From IMG/VR virus record IMGVR_UViG_2690316121_000006: a stretch of DNA of 64,000 nucleotides; one strand, written 5' to 3'. Under the pieces are notes generated by a model that had not been told where the DNA came from, did no database searches, and saw only the letters and a list, made by a program, of their open reading frames with translations. The position numbers and the translations under genes were made by a program. Below, piece after piece: positions 12,045-13,808 of the stretch (its first letter is position 1; each line of letters opens with the position of its first letter). Source of the stretch: a virus (Duplodnaviria; Heunggongvirae; Uroviricota; Caudoviricetes).

Positions 12045-12215
12045 TTATTAACCTCATTACTGGTTGGGAAATAAGGTTGCGGTGCCGGGTGCCTCCCGGT
12101 GTCCTTTGGCTGGTTATCCACCGTGGACGTGGAAACAAGGAGAAATAATGGACAGATATAACCATTTCCCCGCGTGCGCTTAGCCGCATTCACCGCAACG
12201 GAAAGAGCATTCTTG

Positions 12216-12970
12216 GTGGACCTGTAGATTGGGATATGAACCCGTTACAGGAGAATGCTCTTACCTGTTACGTGCTCCGTTTCGTGGAGCTAACGGCGGG
12301 TGATCGGGCCGCACCAGACTGGACTTATTTCAGCGTTATGCTCATGCCAGAGAATCAAACTGTGATGGTCGGTGCTGAACTCCGACACAGGGTTGTAGCA
12401 AGCCCCGCAAAGCGCGCACTACTGTAGTTGCGGCACATCAGCCTGTGCATTCACCACAATGTTGAGAACACTGGTTGTCACGCTGCAACGCAACATTTAT
12501 TCGTAGATTGGGATATGACCCCGTTACGCCAGTGTTCTCAACGTTGTAGTGCCGGTTACGGTTCCGGCCAGGCCTCTTCCTCAACGGGGTGTTCTCCATA
12601 CGGACTACCGTTTATTGGTCGTTCCTGCGGTTTATGTTGTGAAGCCAGATGCTTATCTTCTGGTTGCTTCAAAGAGCTGCACTTCATCACAACGGTAAGA
12701 GCACTCGATGCATTTAAGCCAAGCCCCATAAGGGAGAATGCCCTTACCTGTTGTGTTGTGATGACCGGTGCTGATCTCCGGCTTGCGGTTATTTCAGACT
12801 CTCACGGGCGTTTAATTGCCCCGCCGAACAGCTCTTTTCCGCAATAGCTGCAATGTCTTTCGCGCATCAGCCTGCGCATTCATCACAACGGTAAGGGTAC
12901 TTCGTAGGGATTCGAACCCTCTGCCAAGCTCGGCGATCTCCGACGTCGCAAAATACCCTTACCTGTTGTG
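12216..12970. repeat. cluster of tRNA-like remnants and short inverted/direct repeats (no reverse-strand ORF)
   Basis: Repeated GTAGATTGGGATATGAMCCCGTTAC (12216, 12503), CATCACAACGGTAAGRG in both orientations (12683, 12881 vs 12741, 12953) and a T-arm GGTTCGAATCC with paired acceptor-like ends at 12893-12966. Confidence 0.4.
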
Positions 12971-12971
12971 C

Positions 12972-13047
12972 TGGTGCCGATTAACGGACTCGAACCGCTG
13001 ACATCCTGCTTACAAGGCAGGCGCTCTACCAACTGAGCTAAACCGGC
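12972..13047 (-). tRNA. tRNA-Thr (anticodon UGU)
   Basis: 76 nt incl. CCA; acceptor GCCGGUU..., anticodon loop CUUGUAA, T-loop UUCGAGU. Confidence 0.9.
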
Positions 13048-13049
13048 AT

Positions 13050-13125
13050 TGGCGATGGTGGATGGATTTGAACCATCGACCCGTTGATTAACAGTCAACC
13101 GCTCTAACCGCTGAGCTACACCATC
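13050..13125 (-). tRNA. tRNA-Asn (anticodon GUU)
   Basis: 76 nt incl. CCA; acceptor GAUGGUG/CACCAUC, anticodon loop CUGUUAA, T-loop UUCAAAU; separated from tRNA-Thr by 2 nt. Confidence 0.9.
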
Positions 13126-13590
13126 ACTTGCCGGGTACGTCTCCGGCGAGGGCTTCCACCTCCGTATGCTTTTCGGCGCACCGCGCCCTGGCTGCAATTC
13201 GGTAACAGGGGATGCATAACCCTGGCTTCCAGCGTGATTAGCGCTTTCAGCATGACGGGATATACCCGTAAATTCGTGGAACTGTACCCAAAGTGCTGTT
13301 AAGCACCGCTGTTACGCTGAAAAGAAAACGCAACAGGAAAGGACGCTGACCAACAGATGGCCCCTTCTCGTTCATCTGGTTAATCACACCAGCGCCCTTA
13401 CCTGTTGTGCCTCCCCGTTCCCTAATACACAGACGGGGACACTCTGCGGTCGATTTTTTGACGGGGGACGACTCATACCCCGTGGCGTCTGGCTTCTTAG
13501 GCCGCTACCATCATCAGATCATCGTTTGCATTTACTTTAATGGTCAGTTTCTAAACCGCCGCAAAGTCGCTAACCATGACGAAAACCCTG

Positions 13591-13618
13591 AAAAAAAACG
13601 CCCACCCGAAGATGGGCA
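13591..13618 (-). terminator. intrinsic terminator (reverse strand)
   Basis: Reverse strand reads GCCCATCTTCGGGTGGGCG followed by eight T. Confidence 0.5.
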
Positions 13619-13780
13619 AACTGGAAGCTCGTAACGCACTTCGGAGTTGCCACTTAGGCGCATGGTCAACCTGGCAACTCGGTGGTTTGTCTGGGAGGAC
13701 TAGGCCCAGCCATGCTTACCGCCGCGCCTGTCGCGGCTAACAGCTAAATCGCTCTATAAATCACGATTCATTGAGGCGAT

Positions 13781-13808
13781 ATTACACTAATAAATTTATT
13801 AGAGCAAT
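13781..13808. promoter_or_regulatory. pair of overlapping, opposed C1-type operators (Op72-like) over a reverse-strand promoter
   Basis: ATTACACTAATAAATTT (plus, 13781-13797) and ATTGCTCTAATAAATTT (minus, 13792-13808, exact 17/17); the minus strand carries TTGCTC-17 nt-TAATAT -35/-10. Confidence 0.6.

Follow-up and report, generated by a model that had tools for sequence, protein, structure and literature searches.

The window analysed here is a 64,000-nucleotide (nt) stretch of caudoviricete DNA (IMG/VR record IMGVR_UViG_2690316121_000006) from a P1-like phage-plasmid, and our study concerns the region around its transfer RNA (tRNA) genes, at positions 12,045 to 13,808. A 1.73-kb interval of this region is 99.7% identical to JL22 and RCS47 and 99% identical to P1. 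Transferred to the window, the P1 annotation places on the minus strand the end of dmt, the operator Oban (Op72) with the promoter Pban, a "dicF-like region", trnA (Asn), trnT (Thr), plp and upl (both on the opposite strand), tciA, tciB, tciC, trnI, ban and dbn. The bivalent C1 operator (Op72a/b, Oban) overlaps Pban at 13781-13808 on the minus strand. One half, ATTGCTCTAATAAATTT, reads on the minus strand (13808-13792) and the other, ATTACACTAATAAATTT, on the plus strand (13781-13797); together they form the palindrome I2, whose position agrees with the P1 features 'Obanab' and 'P1ban' (L001 4522-4551). The ban transcript begins here and heads to lower coordinates; read-through from dmt, which lies upstream on the same strand, would also enter the region. 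The first protein gene of the operon is the TerB-like tciA, 3' of the leader (11619-12044, minus strand; P1 annotation; Pfam TerB, 2.1e-6). The minus strand from 13808 to 12045 is an untranslated, heavily structured leader of ~1.75 kb, and since it precedes a repressor-controlled operon, the minus strand is the relevant one. We are highly confident that the region is a non-coding, modular leader that carries a conserved RNA family.

The leader opens with a short terminator-ended RNA, followed by a hairpin (H0), a spacer (S0), tRNA-Asn, tRNA-Thr and an alternation of hairpins and spacers (H1-S1 to H4-S4), after which come tciA-tciB-tciC, a tRNA with anticodon CAT and ban. A terminator scan placed an intrinsic terminator, consisting of a hairpin and U8, at 13590-13621 (minus strand), and the predicted promoter-proximal RNA ending there measures ~180 nt. 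The two tRNAs of the leader are tRNA-Asn (GTT; 13050-13125, minus strand) and tRNA-Thr (TGT, CCA encoded; 12972-13047, minus strand), both found by ARAGORN and by the Rfam tRNA model (74.5 and 72.9 bits). The original prediction, made from the letters of this stretch, counted three intact tRNAs between 12060 and 13790; two are there, but the third, with anticodon CAT, lies outside at 11269-11344 and is a tRNA-Ile in the P1 annotation. The tRNA sets vary in P1-like elements: Asn-Thr here and in P1, Asn-Tyr-Thr in Ro157c2YLVW and at the locus L096, Arg-Tyr-Thr at the locus L021. D6 and P7 have an additional tRNA-Ser(tga) just 5' of a hairpin, and such extra tRNAs lie at spacer/hairpin junctions (L005 2408-2494; L004 1638-1724).

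The most conspicuous components of the leader are its hairpins. Motifs repeated in both orientations had been proposed for this region, and this holds for CCCTTACCTGTTGTG, of which there are three exact copies (12741, 12956 and 13395; 0.07 expected by chance), and for its near-complement CACAACGGTAAGGG, found exactly at 12884 and with one mismatch at 12688 (0.27 expected). A further motif, GTAGATTGGGATATGA, occurs twice (12224 and 12503), but in the same orientation only; the tips of H3 and H4 (GGGKUCAUAUCCCAAUCUAC) are complementary to it. Five long hairpins on the minus strand have the inverted motifs as their arms: H0 (13320-13416; minimum free energy -46.3 kcal/mol, z -5.1; stem of ~27 bp), H1 (12884-12971; -42.7 kcal/mol, z -5.9), H2 (12688-12755; -37.8 kcal/mol, z -5.5), H3 (12450-12551; z -5.0) and H4 (12189-12274; z -5.0). 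Their stems span ~15–27 bp, none of 200 shuffles was as stable, with z from -5.0 to -5.9, and in all five the minus-strand fold beats the plus-strand fold by 4-10 kcal/mol. H0, H1 and H2 share arm sequences with H4 and differ in their apical parts, which comprise, in H1, a small hairpin and a canonical T-arm sequence and, in H2, a conserved sequence of its own. The 23-nt arms of H3 (inverted repeat I1) are 91% complementary to each other and unlike the other copies in sequence. That they diverged yet remained paired implies compensatory change between paralogous copies.

H3 and H4, and more weakly H0, belong to a widespread, uncatalogued family of three-way-junction RNAs of enterobacterial prophages. 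At least 120 IMG/VR contigs contain the tip motif GGGYTCATAWCCCAATCYA; most are lambdoid prophages of ~40 kb, in which the element has a basal stem of ~24-26 bp, a P2 with the near-invariant sequence CGAC-GGGCUCAUAACCC-AAUCCA and a variable P3. A mixed MAFFT alignment of P1-type and lambdoid copies misaligned the 3' arms, so that RNAalifold lost the long stem, and we therefore seeded a covariance model, R1, with 12 lambdoid copies only. This lambdoid-only model recovers H4 (35.1 bits, E about 1e-6), H3 (26.8 bits) and H0 (23.1 bits, E about 1.6e-3; 16 bits on the plus strand), all on the minus strand, while H1 scores 18.7 bits on the plus strand only and H2 is not matched. H3 and H4, with the tips GGGGUCAUAUCCCAAUCUAC and GGGUUCAUAUCCCAAUCUAC, combine the model score with the tip motif (P2 GGGYUCAUAWCCC-AAUCYA). 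Rfam 15 has no family that matches H; on the hairpins of the window, Rfam searches at gathering thresholds and at E<=10 returned only meaningless microRNA-precursor-like matches, and full-text literature searches on the motif sequences and on the ban-operon/ymfH/xisE context returned no description of these elements. We also weighed integron attC-like sites, retron non-coding RNA (ncRNA), toxI-type repeats, CRISPR-like arrays and ribozymes of the hammerhead or twister type, and discarded them all, as core motifs, partner genes nearby and Rfam matches were missing.

The stems of this family are maintained by selection. In a structure-blind MAFFT alignment of the 12 lambdoid copies, 96.9% of the cells at paired positions can pair, against 38-52% when the partners are slid, and nine base pairs have changes on both sides; none of 500 shuffles attained the observed values. 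The comparison of folding energies between strands was indecisive for the lambdoid copies, and the strand was instead assigned by counting wobble pairs against their mirror images. In the set of 44 unique copies, 165 cells are G·U and 28 are A·C, with one U·G pair kept in 39 of the 44, and this excess implies that the structure belongs to the strand that runs with the flanking genes, away from the repressor side or from Pban. The H hairpins are thus RNA structures selected on the transcribed strand.

The family is common. It is carried by 2,808 of 5,426 complete Escherichia coli genomes, in as many as five copies each, and K-12 has one copy in the prophage e14. Among species-representative genomes, 24 of the 37 motif matches are true members by the model and the other 13 are chance matches; all true members but one are from Enterobacterales. 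The exception, an element of 104.7 bits in a contig labelled 'Chryseobacterium sp. 18061' (CACSKA010000005.1; L144 3327-3454), is most likely enterobacterial contamination or an assembly mislabelling. The position of the element follows a rule: in 108 of 118 copies the basal stem starts at a stable terminator hairpin, at or just past its T-run. Most exceptions are P1-type copies, in which H1 follows tRNA-Thr, H2-H4 follow spacers and H0 lies ~180 nt past the terminator. The lambdoid copies of H stand 0.5-1.1 kb 3' of a cI-like repressor gene, with the first early-left gene beyond them (an RdgC-like or DUF2303 gene; xis in e14), except at a few loci where Q is on one side and the lysis genes are on the other; their orientation is always that of the flanking genes. 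In e14 (NZ_CP062246.1 1196554-1196656; L168 1801-1903), the ymfH open reading frame (ORF) overlaps H, with an STnc100-like element and terminator before it and xisE-intE after it; ymfH is probably a mis-annotation. Klebsiella phage 5 LV-2017 (KY271399.1, about 19.6-21.5 kb; L169) carries, between Q and the lysis genes, a terminator, tRNA-Thr, an H2-type hairpin, an S-like element, a terminator and a tciA homolog. Its tRNA-Thr is 91% identical to the copy of the window, and its H2-type hairpin has compensatory stem changes. With this cassette in a late leader, modules that P1 uses in early operons also serve late operons, in a lambdoid phage.

The location of H in leaders of operons that start with a promoter-proximal terminator raises the question of whether the modules keep RNA polymerase going through a long leader, either by protecting the transcript from Rho or by processive antitermination of the put type. 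The put element of phage HK022 is a structured antiterminator RNA of ~70-100 nt, made of stems, in the early-operon leaders of lambdoid phages. The untranslated 1.7 kb ahead of tciA speak for such an activity, and in some carriers (e14, Qin and P1) the stretch examined contains no obvious N-like gene. However, H lies 3' of the adjacent terminator and cannot act on it, and it is also found after tR'-like terminators, in late leaders controlled by Q, where Q is encoded. Moreover, R1 finds no match in the int-to-helicase stretch of HK022 (21.0-34.0 kb) that should contain put, and the multi-copy arrays of P1 are unexpected for a put-like element. We consider this explanation quite unlikely, even if shielding from Rho by a structured leader may be a side benefit.

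The spacers between hairpins are more heterogeneous. S4 (12078-12197, minus strand), which adjoins tciA, has a 9-bp closing stem, a 5' hairpin GCGGCUAAGCGC, a 3' hairpin CCGGGAGGCACCCGG and a fold with z -2.8. It aligns with positions 31-147 of the 206 of the STnc100/PasD family (Rfam RF02076; bioRxiv 10.64898/2026.05.13.724894), at 41.9 bits and E 4.4e-7, below the gathering score of 47. Like S4, STnc100/PasD is prophage-borne, but S4 has no terminator of its own and is part of a 5' untranslated region (UTR). The model also scores relatives (38-39.6 bits), Qin (34.1 bits), a lambdoid locus (41.9 bits, full length) and e14 (29.2 bits). Qin has an equivalent of S4 ahead of dicB, and there are others in e14 and in many lambdoid loci. 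In many of the latter and in e14, the terminator preceding H is itself part of the STnc100-like element, the 206-position model spanning both the S part and the terminator at the same sub-threshold 41.9 and 29.2 bits. S3 (12275-12451, minus strand) begins with a closed multi-hairpin domain of ~100 nt, whose 5' and 3' signatures are as in S1 and S4. These end signatures suggest that S1 and S3 are related to S4. S2 (12552-12687, minus strand), with a predicted fold no better than shuffles, and S0 (13126-13324, minus strand) are unclassified; S0 ends in a CCGG-loop-CCGG hairpin just before tRNA-Asn and is kept as a module in P1, P7 and Ro157c2YLVW and partly in D6 and SJ46. S1 (12756-12883, minus strand) is 99% identical to the leader 3' of a predicted PL-type promoter in mEp460-type lambdoid phages (L003 2503-2629), with unrelated flanks. 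This identity suggests that an RNA module of 130 nt has recently passed from one phage family to another.

The start of the leader is related to a locus of K-12 in which processing has been documented. The segment from 13736 to 13642 (minus strand), part of the P1 'dicF-like region', has its homolog in the dicBF operon of the prophage Qin, in the spacer between ydfC and dicF. Of 5,426 E. coli genomes, 4,259 have chromosomal prophage loci that are ~78% identical to the segment, and the match in K-12 lies between ydfC and dicB, immediately 5' of DicF. The DicF model (RF00039) gave no match at E<=10 between 11200 and 13900, against 76.7 bits for the positive control in Qin, and so P1 has a different terminator hairpin, that at 13590-13621, in the position of DicF. 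In Qin, the STnc100-like element directly follows DicF and reaches dicB, as S4 reaches tciA. The two leaders thus share the homologous segment, a terminator-ended small RNA at the equal position and an STnc100-like element before the first gene. They differ in that P1 has no DicF homolog and that P1-like phages inserted two tRNAs and up to five long hairpins, where Qin has only a weak H-like one. This degenerate hairpin (CCAUAACGCGAAAGCGCAUGG…CCGUGCGCUUCCGGUUGUGG, tip GGUUCAUAGAU, 16.5 bits) lies 5' of DicF, between ydfC and dicF (L128 1110-1199). As summarised in the passage of PMC5069750 that cites Faubladier et al. 1990, the 5' end of DicF is made by RNase E, and its 3' end either by termination (53 nt) or by RNase III acting on the full-length mRNA (72 nt). 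If the ends given in that passage are taken, coordinate arithmetic places the 72-nt end within the closing stem predicted for the STnc100-like element of Qin, 11 bp into its 19 bp. On that account, Qin is the sole experimental anchor of the processing discussed below: a homologous leader in which the long stem right after the terminator is an RNase III site.

Another reading that had been offered is that the repeats are decayed tRNA copies, left by turnover of the tRNA cluster. H1 begins 2 nt past the CCA of tRNA-Thr, and the T-arm with paired ends described earlier is indeed there: a perfect GGGTTCGAATCCC (minus strand, 12907-12919), with the GGTTCGAATCC-type loop, tips a stem with arms at 12956-12970 and 12884-12897. 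Relatives add or swap Tyr, Ser and Arg tRNAs, and ARAGORN at an 80% score threshold calls a 'tRNA-Tyr' on H1. Yet this call overlaps the real tRNA-Thr, and no full cloverleaf was recognised in H1, either by RF00005 at E<=10 or by ARAGORN at default settings. The Rfam scan, which had been proposed as a check, recovers the real tRNAs, and its tRNA model matches none of the hairpins even at E<=10. In local alignments of the H1 interior with 23 tRNAs, only 11-17 nt of the T-arm match, with a score of 24 that equals the best of 200 shuffles. The family also occurs without tRNAs nearby, in more than 100 lambdoid prophage contigs. Among the matches listed, a tRNA lies within 3 kb in 10 of the 120 contigs with H, of which 8 are P1-like, and the other 110 have none. 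Finally, the structure is under purifying and compensatory selection, and compensatory changes imply selection for structure, not decay. H1 holds GCGAC … GGGUUCGAAUCCC, reminiscent of the CGAC-GGGYUCAUAWCCC of the family, and in our reading it belongs to the same series of hairpins, from which it has diverged, and has a tip resembling a T-arm. A tRNA origin of the hairpins is in our view highly improbable.

The region had further been described as free of ORFs. On the reverse strand this is nearly so, with ORFs of at most 57 aa except for one of 104 aa with a TTG start that runs through the tRNA genes. The plus strand, in contrast, has ORFs of 63 aa (12236-12427) and 139 aa (12428-12847, TTG start), which correspond to upl and plp of the P1 annotation. 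One might thus hold that this strand encodes Upl and Plp and that the repeats are incidental; both ORFs are annotated in NC_005856, as are predicted sigma-70 promoters. Neither has a Pfam match, however, the TTG-initiated Cys-rich translation of plp is odd, and our scan saw no promoter-like site on either strand. Their frames are broken, altered or deleted by module indels in P1, D6, P7 and SJ46, with the ORFs changing length or vanishing across these genomes and JL22, and P7 annotates neither. Among the matches listed in plasmid records, whose gene table is incomplete, nothing is annotated under the match. The P1vir transcriptome preprint leaves upl and plp unmentioned, and its few mentions of tRNAs or small RNAs do not bear on this leader. 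The indels, the lack of Pfam matches, the missing annotation in P7 and the odd Plp together suggest that upl and plp are probably not genes, and a coding role of the plus strand seems to us barely credible. Both the decayed-tRNA and the protein-coding readings are largely refuted.

The same indels show how the array evolves. Unit-by-unit BLAST maps of the modules 3' of tRNA-Thr give the order tThr-H1-S1-H2-S2-H3-S3-H4-S4-tciA in the window and in JL22. P1 lacks S1-H2, SJ46 has H3 and H4 fused at their tips with S3 deleted, D6 and P7 have S3/H4 replaced by other sequence that includes the tRNA-Ser(tga), and Ro157c2YLVW, with its Asn-Tyr-Thr set, has H2 where H1 stands in the window. The repeats, whose absence from related genomes would have spoken against their significance, are present there, although in variable copy number. 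Pieces of the array are held by 995 PLSDB plasmids, at 4-100% query coverage. All indel breakpoints among P1, JL22, D6, P7, SJ46 and Ro157c2YLVW fall at H arms or tips. In our explanation, the hairpin copies also act as sites of recombination, through which P1-like and lambdoid phages exchange modules. It could be argued that the repeats act as DNA only, as inverted-repeat recombination or cruciform sites for module exchange. The near-identity of S1 in P1-like and lambdoid phages is in line with this, as are the mirror matches that R1 yields on the opposite strand, as it would for any hairpin. But a protein-binding site should be fixed in sequence, whereas the arms covary; G·U outnumbers A·C, which favours one strand; the orientation tracks transcription in leftward early and rightward late operons; and the unpaired loops are conserved. 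A function confined to DNA is accordingly very unlikely.

What, then, do the structured modules do in the transcript? Of the three readings offered in the original prediction, decayed tRNAs are not supported, and processing signals, small RNAs or both appear favoured by the evidence. RNase III of E. coli acts on nearly continuous double-stranded RNA of 20 bp or more, about two turns of the helix, and the predicted stems of H0-H4, at ~20-27 bp, and the 24-bp consensus of the family are in keeping with this length. We propose that host RNase III would cut the long H stems and, with RNase P, RNase E and exonucleases acting at the tRNAs, would split the leader into the tRNA pair and a series of end-paired structured RNAs. 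The cuts would part the terminator-ended leader RNA from the read-through transcript and the downstream mRNA. They would free the tRNA pair, in which H1, only 2 nt away from the CCA, would without such cuts stand in the way of 3' trimming. They would also excise the S elements, the ends of which could re-pair because the adjacent arms are complementary (GUUGUGAUGA…UCAUCACAAC), and leave the tciA-ban mRNA with S4 as its 5' UTR. Cleavage of H by RNase III is a tentative proposal, which we hold a little short of an even chance; the overall explanation, the identity of the ban leader together with its processing, we regard as evenly balanced.

Hairpins of this kind are familiar from other phages. 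The early and late sites of T7, the N-leader of lambda and sib are RNase III processing hairpins of polycistronic phage transcripts. As H, they are long, near-perfect stems between functional units, often with one internal mismatch, and they depend on the host enzyme with no need for a phage factor. We know of no sequence relation between them and H, for which cleavage is proposed by analogy, and they do not need a three-way junction with an invariant apical domain, which H has. The tRNA cluster of T4 is another precedent: its tRNAs are co-transcribed with stable RNAs (species 1 and 2) and processed by RNase P and RNase III. Both systems couple phage tRNAs to structured RNAs that are not tRNAs, to be released by host nucleases, as would be the case in P1. 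The T4 cluster is nevertheless unrelated in sequence, compact and devoid of repeated long hairpins, and the P1 cluster lies in the leader of a protein operon.

Several observations weigh against our interpretation. RNase III cleavage of H is deduced solely from stem length and from the precedent of Qin. H1 and H2 are not recognised by R1 on the sense strand, so the five hairpins are not one homogeneous family, and the wide variation of copy number among relatives means that individual units are dispensable. The folding-energy strand test was mixed in the lambdoid copies, 11 of 17 being better in sense. The folds of S1 and S3 are no better than shuffles (z -0.75 and -0.31), and the match of S4 to STnc100 remains under the Rfam gathering score. 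Above all, a pure cleavage role leaves the near-invariant apical domain (CGAC-GGGYUCAUAWCCC-AAUCYA) unexplained.

This last point is the main reason to keep a function of the hairpin tip in play. The apical domain of H might be the functional product, as a small structured RNA or as a site for a host or phage protein, with the stem only presenting or releasing it. Across Enterobacterales, 23 nt in P2/P2a are near-invariant while the stems covary, and the loop starts with a YUNR-like sequence (CUCA/UUCA), as is generally the case for antisense recognition loops. The tips of the H2 type differ from these, yet they too are conserved, being common to P1-like phages and the Klebsiella lambdoid phage. 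On the other hand, there is no complementary target in the window beyond chance-level matches, no constant partner gene (RdgC-like, DUF2303, xis and holin genes vary downstream), and no such apical sequence in H0, H1 and H2, which occupy equivalent positions. We judge a functional tip to be unlikely. It is compatible with excision by RNase III. Put together, the two would make H a new class of phage-borne structured ncRNA, the apical domain of which is freed by RNase III and acts itself, for example by binding a host protein or RNA; this bolder version also strikes us as improbable, and a self-processing RNA of a new class is a more remote variant.

A few other structured RNAs were seen along the way. 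Just 3' of the terminator, positions 13497-13603 (minus strand) match the permuted transfer-messenger RNA (tmRNA) model weakly (26.1 bits against a gathering score of 47), and the match recurs at ~24 bits in D6 and Ro157c2YLVW; it is probably due to chance, yet the segment is conserved. The weak tmRNA_permuted, YrlA and ALIL matches of Rfam were dismissed as chance. Farther away, positions 34790-34996 (minus strand) carry a C4 antisense RNA (69.6 bits) and an a1/b1 target element (54.2 bits), which are the immI region of P1, and in mEp460 a pair of isrK and a C4-like RNA adjoins the Rha antirepressor gene (L003 4967-5137).

The tRNAs of P1 and the ban leader were known before; the repeat system is an undescribed and, by analogy with known processing hairpins, probably RNase III-processed phage leader RNA. 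P1 and K-12 are among the best-studied systems, and yet the stretches concerned are annotated as hypothetical proteins (upl and plp, and ymfH in e14) or as nothing. If the apical domain of H turned out to act itself, P1-like phages would carry a polycistronic array of ncRNAs and tRNAs, the units of which are swapped between phage families like cassettes. If instead the processing model is true, it would explain how phage tRNAs and small RNAs of the DicF and STnc100 types are released from read-through transcripts, why these leaders are mosaic and why several ORF annotations should go. The processing model is directly testable in K-12, with e14, Qin and P1 lysogens.

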